Positions 1 through 15,482 of a stretch of DNA of 41,660 bases are shown here, piece after piece; positions within the stretch are counted from its first letter, which is position 1, and each line of letters begins with the position of its first letter. A program made the translations under genes and the position numbers. The notes below the pieces were generated by a model, which made no database searches, had not been told where the DNA came from, and saw nothing but the letters and a program-made list of their open reading frames with translations. Source of the DNA: a virus (Duplodnaviria > Heunggongvirae > Uroviricota > Caudoviricetes); IMG/VR virus record IMGVR_UViG_2778261202_000006, positions 1 through 41,660 of that record; one strand, 5' to 3'.

Positions 1-1158
1 ATGCTCACCGTTAAGCAGATTGAAGCAGCAAAGCCGAAAGAAAAACCATACCGCCTACTCGATGGTAATGGCCTGTATCTTTATGTCCCTGTATCAGGGA
101 AAAAGGTATGGCAGCTTCGCTACAAGATTGACGGTAAGGAGAAAATCCTGACCGTCGGAAAATATCCGCTTATGACTTTGCAGGAAGCAAGGGATAAGGC
201 ATGGACTGCGAGGAAAGACATCTCGGTTGGCATCGATCCGGTAAAGGCGAAAAAGGCTTCGTCTAACAACAATTCATTTAGTGCGATTTACAAGGAATGG
301 CACGAGCACAAGAAGCAAGTCTGGTCTGTAGGGTATGCGACTGAACTTGCAAAAATGTTTGATGACGACATTTTACCTATCATCGGCGGCCTTGAAATTC
401 AGGATATTGAGCCGATGCAACTGCTGGAAGTAATCCGCAGATTTGAAGATCGCGGTGCAATGGAGCGAGCCAACAAAGCCCGCAGAAGATGCGGCGAGGT
501 TTTCCGTTACGCTATTGTCACCGGAAGGGCTAAATATAACCCGGCACCTGACCTTGCAGATGCCATGAAAGGATACCGCAAGAAGAACTTCCCGTTTCTT
601 CCTGCAGACCAGATCCCGGCATTCAACAAAGCACTAGCAACATTTTCAGGAAGTATCGTATCGCTTATTGCGACTAAAGTTTTACGCTACACAGCCCTCA
701 GAACAAAAGAGCTTCGTTCCATGCTATGGAAGAACGTCGATTTTGAAAACAGGATTATCACCATCGACGCCAGTGTGATGAAGGGCCGCAAGATTCATGT
801 TGTTCCTATGTCAGACCAGGTGGTTGAACTTCTCACTGCGCTAAGCTCCATCACTAAACCAGTATCAGAGTTTGTTTTTGCCGGGCGCAACGATAAGAAG
901 AAGCCAATCTGCGAGAACGCGGTATTGCTTGTGATCAAACAAATCGGCTATGAGGGTCTGGAAAGCGGTCACGGATTCAGGCATGAATTCAGCACGATTA
1001 TGAACGAGCACGAATGGCCTGCTGACGCTATTGAAGTGCAACTTGCACATGCCAACGGCGGATCTGTGCGCGGAATTTACAACCATGCTCAGTATCTCGA
1101 TAAACGCAGAGAAATGATGCAATGGTGGGCGGACTGGATTGATGAAAAGGTGGAGTGA
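1..1158 (+). CDS. intS: Tyrosine integrase, P4-type (DUF4102-like N-terminal arm-binding region plus C-terminal catalytic domain)
   Basis: 385-aa ORF; N-terminus LTVKQIEAAKPKEKPYRLLDGNGLYL typical of P4-family integrases; C-terminal H..R..H..Y-type region (HGFRHEF, HANGG..RGIYNH); sits at prophage end. Confidence 0.85.
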   Translation: MLTVKQIEAAKPKEKPYRLLDGNGLYLYVPVSGKKVWQLRYKIDGKEKILTVGKYPLMTLQEARDKAWTARKDISVGIDPVKAKKASSNNNSFSAIYKEWHEHKKQVWSVGYATELAKMFDDDILPIIGGLEIQDIEPMQLLEVIRRFEDRGAMERANKARRRCGEVFRYAIVTGRAKYNPAPDLADAMKGYRKKNFPFLPADQIPAFNKALATFSGSIVSLIATKVLRYTALRTKELRSMLWKNVDFENRIITIDASVMKGRKIHVVPMSDQVVELLTALSSITKPVSEFVFAGRNDKKKPICENAVLLVIKQIGYEGLESGHGFRHEFSTIMNEHEWPADAIEVQLAHANGGSVRGIYNHAQYLDKRREMMQWWADWIDEKVE

Positions 1159-1389: not shown

Positions 1390-2421
1390 ATGCGCAATAT
1401 TTCTATGGATTTGTTAAGGGTAATGTGCTGCATGTTTGTAGTAGCTATACATGTTACTCCTGATTACGGCAATACTGTAATAAATGGATATCCTCTTGCA
1501 ATACAAACATGGTCTTTAGTAATTCAATCGATTGTAAGATCTGGCCTGCCAATTTTTTTCATATTAAGTGGGTATTTTCTTCTAAACAGAAAGGGTGCTG
1601 AAGGTGGTGTCAAGTACTTTAAGAGAATTGCCGCCTTATTAATACCTTTCTTAATTTATGCTTTCCCTTATTATATACTTTTCTACAACGGGACTGTTAG
1701 CTTTTATGGAGCCCGTCAATTTTTAGATTACATTTTTGAAGGTAGCACATCTTTATCCTCACATTTTTGGTTTATATATACCATGCTTGGAATATATATT
1801 TTATATCCAGCAATAAAATTTATAACAGATAGAATTAGCGATGAGAATTCATTTTCCGTTATCATTTTCATGATTTTATTAATAACTTACCAAGCGTACT
1901 CTAATCAACTAGGATTATTTATTAACGGTTTTCACAATGTAATTCCAATACAAAACTTAGATACGTGGGTTATTTATTTTATATGTGGAGGCATGATAAA
2001 AAGAATAAGCAATATAAACATTAATCTTTGGATTACAATTCCTTTGCTAGTAGTTGCAGAGATGCTTCTAGTTTATTTTAGCGTCAATAAATATGGTTTT
2101 AACACTTACCCTTATGATACCAATCCTGTTATGCTTGCACTCACCCTATCAATTACATATGCATTTACCAAGCTGCATAATATTAACATCAAATTATCAA
2201 AATTAACACAGTTCACTTCTAGTTATACCTATGGGTTATTTCTCATACATATACTTGTGTTAATTAAAACAAGGGATTTTATATCACCATATTTTGATTA
2301 CCAATACAGCATTTCAATGACAGCGATGCTTTTTGCATTGACATTTTTTATTAGTTTAACAATTGCTATAATTGTGGACAATGTTTTTATAAAGCCTATC
2401 TTTAATTTACTAAAGCTTTAG
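1390..2421 (+). CDS. Integral-membrane acyltransferase (acyltransferase-3 family; O-antigen acetyltransferase-like, serotype conversion)
   Basis: 343-aa very hydrophobic ORF with N-terminal DLLRvmccmFVVaiHv motif typical of acyltransferase_3; markedly AT-rich relative to surrounding phage DNA; located between integrase and tailspike as in Sf6-type phages. Confidence 0.7.
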   Translation: MRNISMDLLRVMCCMFVVAIHVTPDYGNTVINGYPLAIQTWSLVIQSIVRSGLPIFFILSGYFLLNRKGAEGGVKYFKRIAALLIPFLIYAFPYYILFYNGTVSFYGARQFLDYIFEGSTSLSSHFWFIYTMLGIYILYPAIKFITDRISDENSFSVIIFMILLITYQAYSNQLGLFINGFHNVIPIQNLDTWVIYFICGGMIKRISNININLWITIPLLVVAEMLLVYFSVNKYGFNTYPYDTNPVMLALTLSITYAFTKLHNINIKLSKLTQFTSSYTYGLFLIHILVLIKTRDFISPYFDYQYSISMTAMLFALTFFISLTIAIIVDNVFIKPIFNLLKL

Positions 2422-2458: not shown

Positions 2459-4321
2459 TCAAAAATCATTTCCCTCCCATGAGCATGCTGTTATCGAACA
2501 CGATAAGAACTTAAAAAAATAAGCGCTGGTTGTTGTTGGTGCTATTTTTAGTCCCAAAGCTATATTTTTAGCTGTTTCTAAACAAACTGATATTCCAGAA
2601 TTGTTATTTAGCGTATAAGAACGCATGGGTGTTAATGTGTAATAATCATCAGTTGTATAGAATATTTCCACAGTAGTGCTTGAGTCAGTGGCATGATCTC
2701 TATACCCAATTGAAATGGCAATACTATTCATTGTTTCTATATCAAGTGCAGCATTCCCACCACTATTTCTGAATGCCAGCCCTGAATCTGAGAATGCTTG
2801 ATGCCTTTCATCTGTTGGTGTTCCGGTATTCAATACCGCCCATGGCCTCACATCATCTGATGTATATGTCTGATTCAGATTCCTGATAAGTCCGCCGACA
2901 CCAAGTCCTGGCCCCCACAGATAGTATTTGTACTGATAAGATTCTTGCTCAAAAATATTATTGAAAACTCTTGCTTGTTTATAGAAATCATTATCTGTAA
3001 TTATATCAAGGTGCGTTGGATCTGCTACTGATGACTCCCAAGAAAAACTTGCATACGATCCATCACCAAAGCGGAAAAAACTTTTAGAAAATGAAATTTG
3101 CTTTTCTTTATTCGAAAAAACATCTCCAGTAAAAAGACCAACAGCAGGAATCAGCTTTGCATGTGAGGATTTATACTTTAACTCACCAAAAGAAATAATA
3201 GCATTCTTTTTATTGTCAACATCAGATACTGTCCCAATGTAGTAATAATCGACAAAAATAATATCATAATGTTTTGAGATGGTATCATTACCATATCCCC
3301 AATCGCCGTTATCAGCAATACAAAGTGACTTCCCTGTAACAGCTCTCCATGCATTGATTCTGGCATCTTGTTCCGCAACTGAAACCCCCTGATGCTGGGG
3401 TTCATCAAATAAATAATAACCTATTACACAGTCCCTTCTTCCTAAAGACACAATATCAGGTGGTGGCGTATCATTAGGGCTATTGATTATGACATTAATT
3501 CCAACAGCTTCAGCAGCATTGCATGCTTTCTCAAATGTTCCACCATCCGTAAAATTGTATCCATAATGAATAATCGTATTGAAACCAGCGGTCTTAAGCT
3601 GAAGCATATCACATATATCGAAAACACCATGAACCCATGTAGCCTTCATTTTTGAATGATTCACAGGAGTGTAACTATCAAGATTACACGGGACTGAAGG
3701 CCTACGGGTATAAGTAATGGTACTCTTCCCTTCTATCTTGGCACCATTAGGCCAGTCGAAGCGAGACAGAGTTATATTACCGCTAATATAAGCCTTTCCT
3801 GTTCGTTTAATTGCCTCAAGTATCGACTGTTTTGCATCAATGCCGGGGTTTGAATAATCATATCCAAAAAGGGCTATATCAGATTCATTATAAATCTGAT
3901 TATCAATATTTTCTTGTACTGTTTTACCATTACTTGAGCCAATAAGTGATGCCCCTGACGAAGTGGAAATCTCTTGTCTTAACTGATCTGGATCGTACTT
4001 CAATACATTAGGAAAATTGAACTGCAGAGAACCATACGCATCATAAACAGCCATAGAATGGCCTTGCACAGTTACGAATTTGGCAATCTGTCCGTTATAT
4101 ACAGGGTAACCAGCGGCGTTAATGATGATTGGTTGCGAAACAGGAACGTGAGATCCATCTTCGTTCTCTACATAAACCTGAATCTGGTTTTCAGGATTTA
4201 CAGGGTCAGTGTCAATTTTACCAATATAAATTTTGCCATTGGCTACGGCTTTAAAAGAACGAGCCATAGTGAAGAGTTGCGAAGGCATGCTTACCACAAC
4301 ATTTGCGGTGATATCTGACAT
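2459..4321 (-). CDS. gp9: Tailspike protein (P22 gp9-type N-terminal head-binding domain, divergent receptor-binding/enzymatic domain)
   Basis: From internal ATG at 4321 the protein begins [43 protein letters not shown], matching the P22 tailspike N-terminus; GGAG SD 9 nt upstream; six-frame ORF extends 16 codons further upstream to 4369. Confidence 0.9.
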
Positions 4322-4709: not shown

Positions 4710-4779
4710 AAATCTAGTTTCCGGATAAAATGGCATTGCCTTCATGATATCCTGTGAAAAACTAAGGAGAGTTAACCAT

Positions 4780-5265
4780 ATGAAAAAATCACTGTTAATT
4801 ATCCCGCTTCTGCTGGTTGGATGCGCAAAAGTAAGTGACTATCAAGCAAGTTGCGAACAACGCTATCAAAAGCTTAGCGATATGGCTAATTGCCTTGATG
4901 CCAGTGTGAAGAACGACTCACGCATGGCATCAGCACCAACACCTAAGCTGTATGTCCTTGCTGCAAAGATGCTCGGGCAAGGTGTCGATGAAGGCAAGAT
5001 AAGTGACGCACAGGCAAGACTTGAGCTTCAGAATCTTTATGTTCAATTACAAAGCCAAGAACAAGCCCAACAAATAGCACAAAGCCAAGCATTCCAGCAG
5101 GCTTTATTGAATTATCAGGCTGTAAACACAATGCAAGCGATCGAGCAAAAAGCGCGCCAGCCTGTTATAACTCAACCTTACCCAACACGCGTTGACACAT
5201 ATACAAACTGCAATTCAGGGTTTGGAAATACAGTCACATGCAACAGTAGCAGTAACATAAGATAA
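4780..5265 (+). CDS. Lipoprotein, Gln-rich, function unknown (candidate superinfection-exclusion or lysogenic-conversion factor)
   Basis: Start at ATG 4780 preceded by strong SD AAGGAGAG; signal peptide MKKSLLIIPLLLVGC with lipobox LVGC and Ala at +2; co-directional directly downstream of mnt. Confidence 0.65.
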   Translation: MKKSLLIIPLLLVGCAKVSDYQASCEQRYQKLSDMANCLDASVKNDSRMASAPTPKLYVLAAKMLGQGVDEGKISDAQARLELQNLYVQLQSQEQAQQIAQSQAFQQALLNYQAVNTMQAIEQKARQPVITQPYPTRVDTYTNCNSGFGNTVTCNSSSNIR

Positions 5266-5355: not shown

Positions 5356-7353
5356 CTATTCTGACAACGCATCAGACTTAGCCCCCTGCGTCAGAGCGTT
5401 AATTGCCTTTTGTGCCTGCTGCATTGCTTTCTCAAAGGCTGTTGATCCGCGTGGGGTGTTTGCCATTCGGAGCATTGCATTTCTGAATGGTTCGCTCTCA
5501 TAGGCGCGAGTAAGAAGTCCGTAGCTTACCGCTGCGCCAGTTGTCGCCGGGTTCATTGCCGTCCCATACCCGATAATGAACGGGATGGTTTGCTGCCCTG
5601 TTGGTGTTGTTACTGCCGCTTTTGCTGCCTGCTGAGTGGACTGAAGGTAATTTTTCAATCCTTTCAGATAAGCAGCGTCCTGCCCCTTAAATGTGATGCC
5701 AGTCTGGTTTTGCAGGATGTTAATCTGCCGAAGGAACTGGTCAGGGGATCCGCCAGATTTCTCCATCGCCTTTCCAATGATGCCATTGCGCATTTGCGCC
5801 CTGCCAACACGACCAACTGAGTTATACAGCGTCTTAATTTCCGATTTGTTCTTGCTAAATAGCATGTTGTTGACAACTTCCGGCGTCAGGTCACCTTTCA
5901 TGAGAACATTCTTCAGCCTGGTATTCTTTAGTTTAGCCGCTTCGTCAGCGTAGACGGCATTGGCCTGCTGATATTTACGGAGAGTATCGTTGCCAAGATT
6001 CTGACCAATGGCACCATTGATATCGTCAGTCATTGCCTTGTAAACGCGCTGAATGGCAGCATCGGAACGGTTTGGTAACACTGGTCGCTCACCCTTCACG
6101 TCCATTCTGAACTGGCTGCGCAGATCGCTTAATTGCTTCAAATCCAGATTTACCGGACCATCAGGACCAGCATTGCGAACAAGCTCATCACGATAGGACT
6201 GAAGTTTTGAAATAGTCTCGTTATCAGCGACCTTGCCAAGCTTCTGCAGGTTAGATATTTCTGTATCAATCTGCTGAATTGCTCGCGCAGGCTGAATGTT
6301 TACTCCAGCCATAGCATTCTGAACCTGCTCCAGTCGATTACCGGCGGCACGACGAATTCCTGATGTTTTCGCTTTTAGGCTGTCAATAACAACCGCTGGA
6401 TCATACTCACCGAATTTATCAGCAAATCTCTGCACCAACTGGCTTCTCGCTTCCTGTTGCGTTGCTCTCATTCCGCTTGTGCCAGCCAGAGGGATATTTT
6501 CTGCTGTAGTCTGCGCCATTTTTCCGACGCGGGAAGTAGGCTGTAACAGGTCTGTGGTGTGCAGAGGAACTCCTTCACGCTCTGCAAATCTGATAGCCTG
6601 CTGCGCTTCTGGCGCAATAGCACCACGAACGCCACGATAAGCAGCACCTAATCCACGTCCGGCAGCGTTAATAGCACCGCCAGCCAACACACCAACGCCT
6701 AAATCGGTGGCGAGTGCTTCCGCATCATCTTTCGCACTATTTGCAGCAAGTGATCCAACTGCGTTTTCTGCGAGAAGTCGTGTTGCCCCATGAGCAATTC
6801 GACCAGCAAGTGTTGGTGCCTGTGTTGCCGCCCTCTCAACGCCAGCAGGAGTGAGGTAAGGCAATGCTTCAGCAAATACCCTTCCCTCTGTCGTTTGTGG
6901 AGTCAGCGCGCCTTGCTGAAGGCCAAAGTCCTGCTCTAATCCCTGCGTTGTTACTCGTGGCGCTGGTTGATATGTACCATCGCCAATGCCGAGTTTACCG
7001 CCAGCCCAAGCCGCCGCGCTTGTTACAGCATCTGCAACTGATGCAGGTATGTTTGCCACGTTCACGCCAGCCTGCACCAGTCCGCGACCAGTCTCTTTCA
7101 CTGCTTCACCAAGATCAGACATAAATCCACTTTGCTGTGGTTGTTGCTGTGCTACTGGTTGCTGTGTATCCACTGGCTGCACAGATGGCAATGGATAGGC
7201 AGCATAGAAAGCTTGCTTAGCCTGCTCTGCATTTTCTCCGGCTTGCGGGGCCACGACTTCATTGAAGTATTGCTCCTGAGCCTGCGCTTTTTGTTCTGGT
7301 GCTAACGCCTGATACTGTGGAGAGGCGATAACATCTTTCCATGCTTTAGCCAT
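5356..7353 (-). CDS. gp16: Ejection (E) protein, P22 gp16-like
   Basis: 665 aa; N-terminus [30 protein letters not shown] matches P22 gp16; position after gp20. Confidence 0.85.
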   Translation of the reverse strand: MAKAWKDVIASPQYQALAPEQKAQAQEQYFNEVVAPQAGENAEQAKQAFYAAYPLPSVQPVDTQQPVAQQQPQQSGFMSDLGEAVKETGRGLVQAGVNVANIPASVADAVTSAAAWAGGKLGIGDGTYQPAPRVTTQGLEQDFGLQQGALTPQTTEGRVFAEALPYLTPAGVERAATQAPTLAGRIAHGATRLLAENAVGSLAANSAKDDAEALATDLGVGVLAGGAINAAGRGLGAAYRGVRGAIAPEAQQAIRFAEREGVPLHTTDLLQPTSRVGKMAQTTAENIPLAGTSGMRATQQEARSQLVQRFADKFGEYDPAVVIDSLKAKTSGIRRAAGNRLEQVQNAMAGVNIQPARAIQQIDTEISNLQKLGKVADNETISKLQSYRDELVRNAGPDGPVNLDLKQLSDLRSQFRMDVKGERPVLPNRSDAAIQRVYKAMTDDINGAIGQNLGNDTLRKYQQANAVYADEAAKLKNTRLKNVLMKGDLTPEVVNNMLFSKNKSEIKTLYNSVGRVGRAQMRNGIIGKAMEKSGGSPDQFLRQINILQNQTGITFKGQDAAYLKGLKNYLQSTQQAAKAAVTTPTGQQTIPFIIGYGTAMNPATTGAAVSYGLLTRAYESEPFRNAMLRMANTPRGSTAFEKAMQQAQKAINALTQGAKSDALSE

Positions 7354-10749: not shown

Positions 10750-12167
10750 TACTCAATCCTTATCTGGCAGCCAGACAGAGTGACTGGTGACTTCGTGATA
10801 ACGCGCAATTTGAAGCCGACATTTTTCCTGATGCGCCCAACTCGCTTCCACAAAACACGTTTGTCGTAAACGAACGGTTCATTCTGCTCAATCATCTGTT
10901 CACGTCCGTAATTTATGCCGTCAGTGGTTGCAGAGAGGAACAGGCGGTCGGCGTACTGCGCAACGCCAGTTGACGATTCAACCTCAAGGTCGAACACTCT
11001 GGCGTTATCCGCTTTGAACAACGGAGTAAACAGCAGGTGTTCCTGTTGCTTGTCGTACTGGCTGCTGATGTCGAATTGCAATTTCCCGGTCACGGACTCC
11101 AGCTTATCGCCGCACGTTATCTGATTGCCTTCGTAAATGAAGTCGATAGCGCGGTACACATCGTTATACAGTCCTGTTTTCAGCACACACCATTGCGGAC
11201 CATTGGCGCTTGAAGATGCGTCGTACACCAGAACATGGCGCGGAAGATGGATAATCAGCAACTCATGAGCATCAAATCGCAGCGATTCCATCACACCATC
11301 AGCCAGTTCATCAGCAGTGTAGGAGCGGAGGATTTTCTCAATGCTCGCGCTGGCGATTGGTGACACCTGACCGGAGCCGATGATGTATACAGACGGCGCA
11401 CCCGTTGCCGGATTGCTGATGAACGCATACGAATCAGCAAACGGCGTTTTGCAGTAAGTCCCGGCGATGCCTTTTTGCACCATCAGTGATGGCTGTGCGA
11501 CATACAAAGCAGCACCAACGGTGGTTGCGCCAGTCAGGGAAAAATATTCAATCGTCGATGAACCAAAGCAGACGATGAAGTCTCGCCATGTTCCGATGCC
11601 GATGATGCCGTCAGGCTGAGACTCGGCACGATATTGTGCGCTGTATCGGTCAGGATGTGATTCGTCTTCAGGGTCAGTGATAAACCATGAATCAGTTCCG
11701 TCTTTTGACCACGCATAACGCCCACGTAAGCGCGTAATGTCGCGGACTGAGCCTAACTCATACTGCGTGAATCCGCTGTCTGTAGGCCAGTTTGAGACGG
11801 TTTTAACCGCACCATCATAGCGATACTCGACCAGTTGACCATTAACGCCTACAGCCTGAGATGTTCGACCATGCGCCATTGATACGCGACCACTTCCAGC
11901 GACGTCACCGACTTCGCTTTCGCCTTTGTAGAGCTTCCCACCACACACGCGATAAACAGCACTCTGCGCCATGTTGTACTCGACTCCGCGCGATACACCG
12001 TTCACATCAGAACGTTTGGCAATGCCCGGGAATGAGCGAAGATATCCGCTGCTGTTCAGGATTTCTTTGGGTGTAGCCAGCATATTCACTGGCAGATAGT
12101 CGATATAGTCAGCGTTTCTAAAGTCTTTGCCGACACCTTTCATAAGCGGAAGTTGCTGAATCGGCAT
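10749..12167 (-). CDS. gp10: Tail accessory factor gp10-like
   Basis: 472 aa, same length class and position as P22 gp10. Confidence 0.85.
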
Positions 12168-12667
12168 TATTCGCTCCCGTTATCACAAGGTTCCTTTCGG
12201 TGGAAGTAATTCCAACCGTTCCACTTCGCCAACTGGTTTCCACTGCCAACAGGCATACGGTTTGGATAACCGGACTTACATTTAGCGGCTTTCGCCCTAT
12301 CCATTGCAGACAGTTTGACGAGTCGCTCTTTCCCGTATCTGGCAGTGGTTATAAGTTTTGCAGACGCTTCCAGCGCATAATCTGGAGCAATGCGGCAGGC
12401 AAGGTTGAAAATGACGGCATTGATAGCGTTATTTGATAAACCGTGCTCATCGCCCGGATCCGGAGAAACATCTGCATCAGCAAAAATGTAGCCAACGTTG
12501 ATACCAGGTGACGCATCACCGCCAAGCCATTCAGCCATCATCATTTCAAGGTCGTTGACGCCGTCTTCCATAGACTGCGGTTCGACATCTGTTAACGTGG
12601 CATTTGATGCCACACCGAGCTTACGTAATGCCGCAAGGACTAAATCACCCTTCGTTGTCAGGTTCAT
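12167..12667 (-). CDS. gp4: Tail accessory factor gp4-like (peptidoglycan hydrolase family)
   Basis: From ATG 12667 begins [33 protein letters not shown], matching P22 gp4 N-terminus; six-frame ORF starts earlier at TTG 12727. Confidence 0.85.
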
Positions 12668-13232
12668 CTGCTGCCGCCTTAGGTTTTCGACCAGGCTTTT
12701 TACGCTGTTTTTCTTCTGGCTCTGCAATAGCCGGACGCAAACTCAGGAGTCGTCCAAGAACATCATTTGCTTCATGACCATCCCACTCTTTCCCGAACTC
12801 AAGCTCAGTACCTTCAGGAAGGAACTCGATTTCTTCAACAGGTAGGTGATAAGTGATTTCGCCTTCTGGAGTGGTGATACCAGCAATGATCCAGCCATCC
12901 CACTCTTCACCGTCACTGTGTTTGCGAGACCACCACGAAAGCTCAGCGTAAGCATGCATCAGCGATGAGAAGAGGCGCACTCGGTGAGCGTAAAGCTCGT
13001 TAAAAGTGTGATAACCGTCGGACACTTCGCCCATATCAACTGGGGAAGTTTCACCTCCGCCAACACTCCCAATTTGATCACCAACAAGAGGATCATCAGG
13101 AACATCGTCAGGGTGCTTATACCAGCCATTTGCTAAGTGCACAGCTACATCATCAGGATCAACGGTTTTCGTTTTCAGCTTGCGTCCCCATATTTTGGTA
13201 TCTCCGCCAGCCTGAAAAATCATTACGCTCAT
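12645..13232 (-). CDS. Hypothetical strongly acidic protein inserted between coat and gp4 genes
   Basis: ATG 13232 preceded by SD GGAGAT and by an intrinsic terminator after the coat gene; 195 aa, rich in D/E with repeated WDG motifs and basic C-terminal tail; six-frame ORF extends upstream into coat gene in another frame. Confidence 0.5.
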
Positions 13233-13240
13233 TGGTATCT

Positions 13241-13268
13241 CCAATAGAAAAGGGAGCAGAAGCTCCCT
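13241..13268 (-). terminator. Intrinsic terminator downstream of coat gene
   Basis: Hairpin GGGAGC-ttct-GCTCCC followed by T-tract on the minus strand, between coat stop and next start. Confidence 0.6.
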
Positions 13269-13275
13269 CTGGTTA

Positions 13276-14571
13276 TCACGCGGTCTGGTTAGGCAGACCA
13301 ACACCAATTGCCTCTGGTCGTACAGCACATGCTGAATACCACACAGCAATACGGCACTTACCAGACAGAGTGTTGATATCACCCTGCGTTGCGAAGATGC
13401 CGTTAACACCAATACCAGGAATGCTGAAGGAAGACGTTTTCATGCCAGCAAACAGTTCATGGGTTACCGGGATCGGCTGAGACAGCAGGCGGATTGAGTC
13501 ATCAGCCCAGAACACGTTAGCGGTGGTTGTTGCCACGTTCAGAACGTTTACCGGAGTGGTATCAGCAAGAGAGGTGTTTACGTTAGCGTAAGCCTTCTCT
13601 TCTTTTGTCAGTGACGCGTCATCCAGTGCAATCGGCTTCGGCGTGATTTCGATGTGAGTACCATCGATCACACGGGTGATTGAGAAAGTAGCATCATCAG
13701 TCAGCACGTTCTTCGCCATCTGAGACAGGAATTTCACACCAGTGAAGCTGATTTTGTCGCCGCGCTTAAACCCGGTGGTGGAGGATACGGTCACCGTTGC
13801 AACACGGTTGTCGACGTTCTCTTTGTTACCATCGGTATCAAGAGTGTATGCCTGCGGCTTAAACTTCTGCGCACCAGAAACAGTTACACCAGTAGCGGTT
13901 GACTTGGTAACTGCCGGAAGTTTCGGTGAGCGAAGAATTTCATCAAAGCCAGCAATCTGACGCTGAATAGTACCGTTGCGATACGCTTCTTCAGGAACGC
14001 GACCGAAGATGTCACCATCTACCAGGTTGCGGCCTGCTTTGCGGTAATCGTCAGGGTTCAGGAAGTAACTGATGCCCATATCGCGGTTTAGCTCACGGGA
14101 GAACATCAGGCGCTCTGCATCAGACACAAAATCCCAGCCAGACAGGCCAGTAGATGGACCAATTGCGCGGGTATCGTGAACAACAAGCGAGCCCATTTCA
14201 GTTGCCTGTTTGGCAATTGCTGACTCAATGTTATTCGCCAGTTTTTTGGCGGATGCCTGGATGCGGCGACGGTAAGAACGCTCATCACGCAGGTCATCTG
14301 CACGAAGCTCGAAGAAATCGTTATCCGGATCGCCCATGTTGCATTTCACGGAGAGTTCCAGAATCCCGGTTGCGTTGCCAGTTAAATCCCAGCCAGTCTG
14401 GGTTGGCGCTTCCTGCTCAACAGGCATCCACACGGTGTTGCTTGAACGCTGCATGGATTCTGCCGGAGGGGTGTATTTTGTCACTTTGGACGCCATTGGC
14501 GTCAGGTTCTGGACGGTTTCGATGATTTCATCCAGAGCATACGTGACCAGTTGACCTTCATTTAATGCCAT
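13276..14571 (-). CDS. gp5: Major coat protein, P22 gp5-like
   Basis: 431 aa; N-terminus [27 protein letters not shown] and overall similarity to P22 coat protein. Confidence 0.95.
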
Positions 14572-15482
14572 TATCGAATTCCTTTATTCAGTTGCGCCTT
14601 GAGCTTGCGGTACGTCTCTACATCCCCTTTGTTTGCTGCCGCCTCCATCTGCTTTTCAATCGCAGAGATATTTGCAGCAACAGCATGTCCCTGAATGGGT
14701 TCATCAGGTAACGGGGCTTCTGAAACAGGCTTGGCTCGAGGCTTGAGAGTTAAACGTTCTGACAGTCGAGTGAGTTCAATCAGTGCGGATTGCCCGTCCA
14801 TCGCCAGCAACTGGCGTGTTTTCTCAGGATTAGCACCAAGGTGATACATGATAGCAGCGGATTTCTCCGGGAAGAGGCGCATGATGTCGGCACCGACTGC
14901 TGGCGGCACCAGTTGCATGAATGCATCCTCTTTCTCCTGATAGTCAGGGATATTGAGCTTTTCCGCTGCGTCGTAGTGCTTACGGGCTGCCTCGACGTAT
15001 TGCGCTGATTGCTGGGTGAACTCCTGAGTTTTGCGACCCTGCTCGGCGACAGCCTGGCTTCGTGCGTCCATAGCCTTGATCTGCCATTCACTGTTTGCCT
15101 GCTGGAAGGCAGCCAGTGCGCGGCTCTGGTCATAGTCGTACTTAGCCAGTGCGTCTTCGGAAAGATAATCGTTAGGGTCTGGTTGTTTTGGTAACTCAGG
15201 GTTCACCCGCAGGTGCTCCGGCAACTCTCCACGCTTAACCGCTTCCATCTGCTGCTCAAGCTCACGCTGGCGTTTGCGTTCGATGCGGCGACGGGCAAAT
15301 TCAGCATTAGTTGCCGGGTCTTGTTTTGGTTTCTCATCGTCTTTCAGGACAATCTCGAAGCCTTCTTCCTGACCTGCGTTGTCGTTGGCATTATCGACAA
15401 CTAAGCCATCAGCAGATGCCGCTGCATGATTGCCGGGCAGGGTTAATTCTTCAGAAGCCTGAATGTCGGTGGTTTGGTCCAT
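14571..15482 (-). CDS. gp8: Scaffolding protein, P22 gp8-like
   Basis: 303 aa, acidic helical protein directly upstream of coat gene. Confidence 0.9.

Follow-up and report, generated by a model that had tools for sequence, protein, structure and literature searches.

What is the gene for an acidic 195-aa protein doing between the coat and gp4 genes of a P22-like phage, and is it an insertion equipped with its own signals, as the original prediction had it, or part of a locus that is already familiar? In the window, i.e., the whole stretch of 41,660 nt of viral DNA that was analysed, the gene is a minus-strand ORF (13232..12645) with an ATG at 13232, 195 codons and a stop codon at 12645-12647 (Table 1). 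As predicted, the protein is acidic (predicted pI 4.7; 38 D+E and 20 K+R), its translation contains WDG at residues 111-113 and 150-152 as well as a basic Lys/Pro tail, and its neighbours are coat and gp4 genes according to their PF11651 and PF11650 matches. The position between coat and gp4 likewise stands, except that the end of the gene runs 23 nt into the start of gp4. The ORF is a genuine gene, matching phrog_3769 over its full length (E 1.6e-101), and its product falls into a cluster of 1929 E. coli sequences that are 99% identical. Compared to the epsilon34 orthologue, pS for the whole gene is 0.87, i.e., saturated, while pN is 0.25; as ranges, pS is 0.87-0.95 and pN 0.19-0.32, indicating purifying selection on the protein. 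Thus, the ORF encodes a real, constrained protein. Two ORFs on the opposite strand (12498-12845 and 12984-13136) were taken as shadows of this conserved minus-strand gene.

Table 1. Features of the coat-gp4 region, in coordinates of the window
Feature	Position	Strand	Evidence or remark
Coat (major capsid), P22 gp5 family; upstream neighbour	13276..14571	-	PF11651 E 2.8e-166, full length
Post-coat hairpin ('t coat' type), 9-bp stem AGAGGGAGC/GCUCCCUUU, loop UUCU	13249..13270	-	followed by U-rich tail to about 13243
Shine-Dalgarno GGAG	13239..13242	-	6 nt ahead of ATG 13232; conserved in APC_JM3.2 and Louie
Whole gene, 195 codons + stop	12645..13232	-	orthologue of epsilon34 gene 6, L/ST64T orf186, ST104 orf54
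N-terminal orf69-like domain, aa 1-45, beta-hairpin + helix	13098..13232	-	phrog_1175 E 1.9e-14
Acidic Gly/Pro-rich linker, aa 46-67, predicted disordered	13032..13097	-	pLDDT <50, residues 50-61
WDGH domain, aa 68-165	12738..13031	-	PF25311 E 1.3e-39, profile positions 1-97 of 97
C-terminal tail, aa 166-195, Lys/Pro-rich KKPGRKPKA, then acidic end	12648..12737	-	codons hold gp4 RBS region and start
Overlap of gene 3' end with gp4 start, 23 nt	12645..12667	-	read from sequence
gp4 head-completion / head-tail adaptor; downstream neighbour	12167..12667	-	PF11650 E 9e-59; phrog_637

The protein is modular: An N-terminal mini-domain resembling orf69 is followed by an acidic linker predicted to be disordered, then by WDGH and finally by a Lys/Pro tail, the codons of which also serve as the gp4 initiation region. 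The N-terminal domain aligns with P22 orf69 and with APC_JM3.2 gp22, and AF2 models residues 1-40 with pLDDT >88; its profile matched 447 clusters, and among the 120 matches listed, all were short proteins of 44-90 aa. The WDGH domain scores 134.8 bits against PF25311, for which the cut-off is 27 bits; it is net acidic (pI 4.5) and is modelled with pLDDT 91-98, compared to 87 for the whole protein. It contains the signature W150-D151-G152-H153 and S71-D72-G73-Y74-H75-T76-F77...H83-R84 (the SDGYHTFxELYxHR block), which are ≥90% conserved in 150 diverse members. The near-invariant residues are S71, D72, G73, H75, T76, F77, E79, Y81, H83, R84, W100, S102, H105, D107, G108, Y128, H129, W150, D151, G152, H153 and R161. 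Such a density of near-invariant residues in ∼100 aa (five His, three Asp, two Arg and several Trp/Tyr) suggests a pocket for ligand binding or catalysis, more than a role that is only structural. HxT motifs like those of 2H phosphoesterases ('YHTF' and 'YHLP'), picked out by eye, did not fit the H-x-T/S pattern and were without database support, and this idea was rejected. The C-terminal tail is common to P22 orf69, epsilon34 gp6 and APC_JM3.2 gp22, and the DNA from GCAGAGCCAGAAG onward is identical to that of APC_JM3.2.

The original prediction regarded genes 5 and 4 of P22 as normally adjacent. This is not the case: P22 carries a stem-loop and orf69 there, and Sf6 has 't coat' and gene 6 at the same place. 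A 186-aa homologue occupies the same position in epsilon34, L, ST64T, ST104, SE1, g341c and BTP1, and the 195-aa protein is 62% identical to these orf186/gene 6/orf54 proteins, which are found at this position in 35+ Salmonella P22-like phages. The gene of the window lies between coat and gp4, downstream of the coat hairpin, and its 3' end runs into the gp4 start; its N-terminal domain and Lys/Pro tail are homologous to those of orf69/orf186 (phrog_1175, phrog_3769 and alignment). Based on direct homology and synteny, we assign it, by position and by sequence, as the orthologue of epsilon34 gene 6, L/ST64T orf186 and ST104 orf54, with P22 orf69 as the short form. The epsilon34 paper describes the P22 copy as an internally deleted version and reports the gene to be non-essential in P22 (PMC2629481); published accounts list its function as unknown (PMC2629481, PMC8022706). 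The feature is already known, from the epsilon34 and phage L genome papers, a Pfam entry and the name given by the NCBI annotation pipeline.

A comparison with P22-like genomes lacking the insert had been proposed. E. coli phages in which coat and gp4 are 97-98% identical keep both ends of the gene and are without the WDGH part. WDGH DNA was found in 43 of 5426 complete E. coli genomes, in all cases at ≥99% identity, and the coat-gp4 flanks in 212 E. coli genomes (≥80% coverage). Among E. coli prophages that are otherwise near-identical, only a minority carries WDGH, and the segment from the ATG to the tail is a mosaic unit, flanked upstream by the conserved post-coat hairpin and Shine-Dalgarno and downstream by the conserved gp4 start region. 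The "insertion" is one allele of a known variable locus and, as a genome feature, ordinary.

The gene had also been credited with its own terminator and Shine-Dalgarno sequence. A hairpin with a U-run and a GGAG do precede it. The hairpin folds with −21.1 kcal/mol (z −3.3) and also gave a terminator-like match in a scan; as a GC-rich hairpin directly followed by a U-run (tail UUUUCUAUU), it is a putative Rho-independent terminator by sequence and fold prediction. Equivalent hairpins with other stem sequences are present in epsilon34, P22, Sf6 and APC_JM3.2; the one in P22 is annotated as a stem_loop and the one in Sf6 as the terminator 't coat'. Because the hairpin is kept in P22-like phages with or without WDGH, it is not this gene's own terminator, and we assign it to the coat gene. 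A scan detected no sigma-70-like promoter near the gene, which speaks against a moron with its own promoter. Late transcription in lambdoid phages is antiterminated, and read-through of the hairpin is expected. We suggest that the gene, without a promoter of its own, would be made late within the antiterminated late operon, and that its translation is probably coupled to that of gp4. This suggestion follows from the absence of a promoter-like site near the gene and from the conserved overlap with gp4, which is 17 nt in P22 and epsilon34, 26 nt in Sf6 and 23 nt in APC_JM3.2.

The overlap conserved in these four phages also fits a scenario in which the conserved function resides in the orf69-like frame, which would bring ribosomes to the gp4 start and thereby control gp4 dosage, or would aid assembly in a minor way, with WDGH as a tolerated passenger. 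Consistent with this, the short form (N-terminal domain and tail) greatly outnumbers the long one, WDGH+ and WDGH− alleles have identical tail DNA, pS is lower in the tail (0.60) than outside it, and the linker can be replaced by a PE repeat. However, WDGH is under strong purifying selection against the epsilon34 orthologue (pN 0.19 with saturated pS) and has kept every near-invariant residue of the family and, therefore, is not a decaying passenger; moreover, the conservation of the N-terminal domain at the protein level exceeds what a mere coupling ORF would need. We consider this scenario rather unlikely as the explanation of the gene, and note that it is compatible with, and not exclusive of, the counter-defence function that we prefer.

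The case for counter-defence comes from the WDGH family elsewhere. The PF25311 profile matched 3657 cluster representatives at E≤1e-3 (clusters at 50% identity), spread over phages of Enterobacterales, Listeria, Bacillus, Streptococcus, Lactococcus, cyanobacteria and actinobacteria. Among 150 diverse representatives, the fusion partners annotated by Pfam are Sequestin/PF21825 (six), Lar (three), the Acb2/Tad1 hairpin, a Tad2-like domain, YodL, an RNase_T exonuclease and a zinc ribbon (one each), and about 135 are without an annotated partner. One protein (P0101) has the order Tad2-like-WDGH-Sequestin and is encoded in a P22-like Serratia prophage between lysis and terminase genes; the gene for a WDGH-Sequestin protein (P0082) directly follows a Tad2-like gene; and in Bacillus phage Nate, a NADAR gene adjoins the WDGH gene. 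What is new here is this apparent link of WDGH by fusion to Sequestin and Tad2, both proven Thoeris sponges, to the Acb2/Tad1 hairpin and to Lar, and by adjacency to Tad2-like and NADAR genes. The annotated partners are dominated by proven anti-defence modules, and the same type of evidence led to Sequestin: PF21825 was found via its fusion to Tad2/Acb4 and was then proven to be a 3'cADPR sponge (bioRxiv 10.1101/2025.07.12.664507). Some WDGH partners are not anti-defence, i.e., the RNase_T exonuclease, YodL and a PHROG labelled nucleotide pyrophosphohydrolase.

Because of the fusions to Sequestin, Tad2-like, Acb2/Tad1-hairpin and Lar domains in other phages, we favor anti-defence among the three functional options originally proposed, the others being a packaged internal protein and a capsid decoration or accessory protein; the support is indirect. 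Fusion and adjacency to sponge domains are recurrent for the WDGH family, not for the 195-aa protein itself, in which Pfam, NCBIfam and PADLOC revealed no known anti-defence domain (NCBIfam and PADLOC gave no matches at all), and WDGH has no homology to a characterised sponge family in sequence or fold. Our preferred reading, to which we give an even chance, is that the gene encodes a late-operon accessory protein, orthologous to the known post-coat gene, in which WDGH is most likely a counter-defence module and not a virion building block. The 195-aa protein is, then, plausibly a counter-defence protein: It would be a cytoplasmic accessory protein in which WDGH would bind or hydrolyse a small nucleotide-derived signal of host immunity, or otherwise neutralise host defence, and it would be expressed alongside structural proteins, which are common triggers of such defence systems. 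For Thoeris, the reported triggers include a capsid vertex protein (PMC13243611) and side tail fibres (bioRxiv 10.64898/2026.06.04.730250). The broader proposal is that WDGH represents a new, widespread family of phage counter-defence proteins that sequesters or hydrolyses nucleotide-derived immune signals, e.g., the ADPR-derived signals of Thoeris, and was grafted into the P22-like post-coat gene. We put this forward tentatively, as a possibility that may well not hold; if true, members such as this one would be made together with the very structural proteins that trigger signalling defences.

The invariant His, Asp and Arg residues would also suit a nucleotide- or nucleic acid-metabolising enzyme, or a host-takeover enzyme, acting outside immunity, e.g., a phosphohydrolase or a nuclease accessory domain. 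The single RNase_T-type exonuclease fusion, the three WDGH members that match a PHROG labelled nucleotide pyrophosphohydrolase and the broad spread over Listeria, Bacillus, Streptococcus, Lactococcus, cyanophage and actinophage genomes agree with this idea, which we nevertheless regard as improbable: WDGH matched no enzyme family by sequence or fold, its commonest annotated partners are anti-defence modules, and the gene is dispensable and patchy among near-identical phages, a pattern typical of accessory genes in an arms race. No solved structural relative of WDGH was found, and a literature search on WDGH or PF25311 returned nothing relevant and revealed no experiment with a WDGH protein. 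Differences in distribution and source ruled out that WDGH is a renamed Lockin, Acb5, TadIV-1 or RyR-like Tad. INPHARED contains no Lockin, and Acb5 comes mostly from Streptomyces and Mycobacterium phages, both unlike the distribution of WDGH; TadIV-1 comes from T4, whereas the tblastn matches of WDGH include no Escherichia T-even records.

Is the protein part of the virion instead? Its gene lies inside the head-assembly cluster and would be co-transcribed with the coat and head-completion genes, and an unrelated S. pneumoniae phage likewise carries a WDGH gene in its head module, flanked by the genes for the portal and a minor head protein. With its acidic body and basic tail, the protein would suit an internal or ejected role, packaged in few copies along with the DNA, or capsid decoration, with the N-terminal domain or the basic tail targeting the procapsid and WDGH acting in the next host. 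Injection would also allow an anti-defence protein that is made late to act early, when it would be of most use. Several observations argue against this. First, virion gels of epsilon34, which has the full-length gene, almost match those of P22, which has only orf69, except for the sizes of gp13/tailspike and the 15-kDa Dec, and no extra band of ∼21 kDa was reported (PMC2629481), although the gels speak to an abundant component and not to a few copies per virion. Second, the gene is non-essential in P22 (PMC2629481), and phages with 97-98% identical coat and gp4 do without WDGH. Third, the canonical virion genes are all present separately in the window, and the complete P22 ejection set of gp7, gp20 and gp16 is separately encoded. 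Fourth, elsewhere WDGH is found in early or accessory regions, as in Pavtok, Eowyn, A511 and Nate. Fifth, the protein has no similarity to Dec or any other virion protein, with no Pfam, PHROG or PDB match to Dec, gp4, gp10, gp26, gp14, gp7, gp20 or gp16. The suggested searches for remote homology and structure identified the WDGH and orf69-like domains and matched no known virion protein or solved structural relative; virion proteomics covering the 195-aa gene was not found in the literature. Altogether, these findings do not support a decoration or packaged protein, and we regard a virion-associated role as quite improbable.

The value of the locus is that of a lead. The WDGH family is large (>3600 clusters at 50% identity) and structurally unmatched. 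Moreover, natural WDGH+ and WDGH− alleles in near-identical P22-like phages of E. coli and Salmonella (L, ST64T and epsilon34 vs. P22) provide ready isogenic material.

Among known systems, the closest are epsilon34 gene 6, orf186, orf54 and the BTP1 homologue, which are alike in position, three-part architecture, hairpin and gp4 overlap. Identity is 62% overall and about 77% within WDGH; these homologues have 186 aa compared to 195 aa for the E. coli allele, and the N-terminal domain and linker have diverged. P22 orf69, Sf6 gene 6/HK620 hkbT and APC_JM3.2 gp22 share the locus, the N-terminal domain and the Lys/Pro tail but are without WDGH; in APC_JM3.2, the flanking DNA is identical and a PEPEPE repeat linker takes the place of WDGH, while for Sf6 gp6 the similarity is weak (23%). 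Dec of phages L and epsilon34 is likewise an accessory protein of P22-like phages, and P22 itself lacks it. However, the Dec gene lies at the far genome end, and Dec has an OB fold and forms a strong band of 15 kDa in virion gels; none of this applies to the 195-aa protein. Within the PF25311 family, the WDGH domain matches over its full length and has all signature residues; it is embedded in an orf69 frame within a late structural operon, whereas elsewhere the domain stands alone or occurs in fusions, most of them encoded, like the stand-alone forms, in early or accessory regions. To our knowledge, descriptions of the known sponge genes do not generally place them in late operons. The known sponges also have positively charged pockets, while the WDGH domain is acidic. 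Like Tad1, Tad2, Acb2, Acb4, Sequestin, Lockin, Acb5 and TadIV-1, WDGH is a small, promiscuous accessory module of phages, and the guilt-by-fusion logic that we apply to it is the same as that by which Sequestin was discovered.

Here, we identify the ORF between the coat and gp4 genes as an already known accessory gene, of the orf186/gene 6 family, at a known variable locus and not as a novel insertion. The original prediction of an acidic 195-aa gene at this position is borne out by the ORF itself, its computed pI of 4.7 (38 Asp+Glu vs. 20 Lys+Arg) and the Pfam matches of its neighbors; the WDG repeats noted there lie at residues 111-113 and 150-152. The description of a hairpin after coat and an SD ahead of the ORF was accurate: the 43-nt spacer holds a 9-bp hairpin, then a U-rich tail and then GGAG, 6 nt upstream of the ATG. 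The final 23 nt of the ORF are shared with the start of gp4. However, genes 5 and 4 of P22 are not, as had been supposed, normally adjacent. In the curated P22 record, gene 5 is followed by an annotated stem-loop, orf69 and gene 4, and in the Sf6 record the annotated terminator "t coat" is followed by gene 6 and the gp4 homolog. Nor does the terminator belong to the ORF; because a hairpin lies 3′ of the coat stop codon in five of five phages examined, with differing stems (AGAGGGAGC, AGGGGC, AAGGGGC), it is a conserved coat-gene feature that was not imported with the ORF. By tblastn, 62%-identical proteins are encoded at this locus in epsilon34 (gene 6), g341c, L and ST64T (orf186), ST104 (orf54), SE1, BTP1 and ∼30 other Salmonella P22-like phages. 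According to the epsilon34 genome paper, the P22 homolog of gene 6 has an internal deletion, and gene 6 is non-essential in P22 and of unknown role (PMC2629481); orf186 is listed as function unknown in the phage L paper (PMC8022706).

Features of the coat–gp4 region and of the surrounding prophage
Feature	Position	Strand	Basis
195-aa ORF	ATG 13232 to stop 12645-12647	minus	ORF reading of window
Coat gene, upstream neighbor	13276-14571		PF11651, E 2.8e-166
gp4 gene, downstream neighbor	12167-12667		PF11650, E 9e-59
9-bp hairpin (with U-rich tail) after coat	13270-13249		folding -21.1 kcal/mol, z -3.3
WDGH-coding DNA	12729-13100		
Tail motif (K/R)xGRKPKA	12648-12700		
Integrase gene	1-1158		
Acyltransferase-3 family gene	1390-2421		
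173-aa ORF	4744-5265	plus	no Pfam match
665-aa ORF	5356-7353	minus	no Pfam match

The remainder of the window makes up a full P22-like prophage, with genes for an integrase, an O-antigen acyltransferase, a tailspike with a P22 head-binding domain, gp20, gp7 and gp14-like proteins, gp10 and a tail needle with an Sf6-type knob. The acyltransferase-3 family gene, which comes after the integrase gene and adjoins the tailspike gene, is probably an O-antigen-modifying lysogenic-conversion gene. The 173-aa ORF is flanked by the tailspike gene and the 665-aa ORF, at the place of the immI/sieA region in P22; judged by position, the 665-aa ORF should be the gp16 homolog.

The ORF is a genuine gene under constraint, and its family is already catalogued. 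PF25311, the WDGH domain, is matched end to end by residues 68-165 (134.8 bits, threshold 27 bits; E 1.3e-39), phrog_3769 matches the whole length (E 1.6e-101), phrog_1175 matches residues 1-44, and 1929 E. coli sequences, some of which bear the name "WDGH domain-containing protein", fall into one cluster at 99% identity. Relative to the epsilon34 ortholog, synonymous sites are saturated (pS 0.87 overall, 0.95 in WDGH) and nonsynonymous divergence stands at 0.25 for the whole gene and 0.19 for WDGH, demonstrating purifying selection. The lower pS of the tail (0.60) fits a dual constraint with the gp4 ribosome-binding region. The tail motif (aa 178-186, KKPGRKPKA), also conserved in P22 orf69 and epsilon34 gp6, loosely resembles an AT-hook (GRP core); its conservation may stem from protein function or solely from the gp4 ribosome-binding region that it overlaps. 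The confident AlphaFold2 model (mean pLDDT 87) comprises a β-hairpin and helix (residues 3-34), a disordered linker (46-66), WDGH as a compact α/β domain (pLDDT 91-98) and a tail of low confidence.

The locus is modular and mosaic, and both its hairpin and its overlap with gp4 are conserved. A protein alignment of the window protein, epsilon34 gp6, P22 orf69, Sf6 gp6 and APC_JM3.2 gp22 reveals a common N-terminal domain and a common K/P tail. WDGH is confined to the long forms; in APC_JM3.2 gp22, a PEPEPE repeat replaces it. The closest sequenced phages (APC_JM3.2, IME10, Louie, Dewey, HZ41 and CurroJimenez) have coat and gp4 genes 97-98% identical to those of the window. The DNA of two of them, APC_JM3.2 and Louie, was aligned to the window: both are the same across the coat end, hairpin and SD, diverge in the N-terminal domain and lack WDGH, and in APC_JM3.2 identity resumes at GCAGAGCCAGAAGAAAAACAG and continues through the gp4 start. 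In the APC_JM3.2 allele (L001:2970-3236), N-terminal domain and tail are joined by a Pro-Glu repeat, (GAGCCA)n, annotated as repeat_region 3116-3166 and variable in length (cf. Louie); the window has one GAGCCAGAAG copy at this junction, a possible hotspot of slippage or recombination that would mark the module boundary. In Louie (L002:1631-2158) and Dewey, whose coats are 97% identical to that of the window, an opposite-strand HNH endonuclease gene separates the scaffold gene from the coat gene, which gives the head-gene cluster a second variable site.

The N-terminal domain profile matches 447 clusters, and since all 120 among the matches listed are Enterobacterales proteins of 44-90 aa, short forms seem to predominate. 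The coat–gp4 type of the window occurs in 212 of 5426 complete E. coli genomes at ≥80% coverage, and the WDGH segment in 43 of the 5426, every copy being at least 99% identical. The WDGH-coding DNA is thus more uniform (≥99% in the 43 genomes that carry it) than the flanking coat and gp4 genes of this prophage type (90%-99% across hundreds of genomes; compared region 12100-14700), suggesting that the cassette spread recently and horizontally between prophages.

WDGH proteins form a large family, with 3657 representatives (50% identity) matching at E≤1e-3; these are 112-570 aa long and have the domain at any position. Among sequenced phages it occurs in those of Listeria (54 records), Bacillus (45) and Salmonella (35), in phages of Streptococcus, Lactococcus, Klebsiella and Staphylococcus, in cyanophage S-2L and in actinophages. 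Across 150 diverse members, conservation reaches ≥90% at ∼25 residues, among them five His, three Asp, two Arg and several Trp/Tyr, a sequence pattern that suggests a ligand or catalytic site. That WDGH is a non-immune enzyme seems to us quite unlikely. Three of the 150 match phrog_4159, "nucleotide pyrophosphohydrolase", although none has a MazG-type Pfam match; this may come from a partner domain or from a wrong PHROG label.

Pfam-annotated fusion partners among these 150 representatives are PF21825, crAss001_48 or Sequestin (six members), Lar restriction-alleviation (three), and the Acb2/Tad1 hairpin, Tad2-like, YodL, RNase_T exonuclease and a zinc ribbon (one each). A P22-like Serratia prophage encodes a Tad2-like–WDGH–Sequestin protein (P0101, L011:6001-6798), with its lysis cassette on one side and its terminase/portal genes on the other. 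A WDGH–Sequestin protein (P0082) is encoded directly 3′ of a 293-aa Tad2-like gene in the early operon of a temperate, Pavtok-like phage (L012:5071-6870); both regions look like candidate anti-signaling hotspots. In Bacillus phage Nate, a NADAR-family gene adjoins the WDGH gene. On the strength of these fusions, we regard it as an evenly balanced proposition that WDGH would neutralize a host defence of whatever type, and only tentatively suggest that its targets might be nucleotide immune signals.

Because no promoter-like site was found near the ORF, we infer that it is expressed from the late operon. It would also be translationally coupled to gp4, and its product would be a cytoplasmic accessory protein. 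Structural proteins, namely a capsid vertex protein (PMC13243611) and side tail fibers (bioRxiv 10.64898/2026.06.04.730250), are reported determinants of Thoeris sensing, so that it would not be unreasonable for a counter-defence protein to be made together with coat. It is unlikely, and compatible with WDGH in counter-defence, that the orf69 frame serves gp4 expression.

Of the roles originally proposed, anti-defence has gained indirect support from the fusions to Sequestin, Tad2-like, Acb2/Tad1 hairpin and Lar domains, whereas a decoration or packaged protein has lost ground. Streptococcus pneumoniae phage phiARI0468-4 does have WDGH between its portal and minor head protein genes; this stand-alone 131-aa protein (gp19, L009:3408-3803) represents an independent placement in the head-morphogenesis module of an unrelated siphovirus. 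However, virion gels of epsilon34 vs. P22 (PMC2629481), the dispensability of the gene, the lack of it in phages whose capsids are nearly identical (APC_JM3.2 and Louie among them) and the nonstructural contexts of WDGH in other phages make a virion protein improbable, although low-copy packaging may occur. Remote homology searches with WDGH matched no known structural protein: phmmer and profile searches of the PDB returned nothing, Foldseek gave no resembling solved structure (best E 0.96) and BFVD matches were solely other WDGH proteins.

Sequestin is a 3′cADPR sponge that blocks type I Thoeris and was discovered through its fusion to Tad2 and Acb4, in a paper that does not mention PF25311 (bioRxiv 10.1101/2025.07.12.664507). 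Lockin and Acb5, other new families in that paper, have a phage distribution unlike that of WDGH. The candidacy of WDGH for counter-defence, unpublished as far as searchable literature shows, is a testable lead that follows the same fusion logic as Sequestin.
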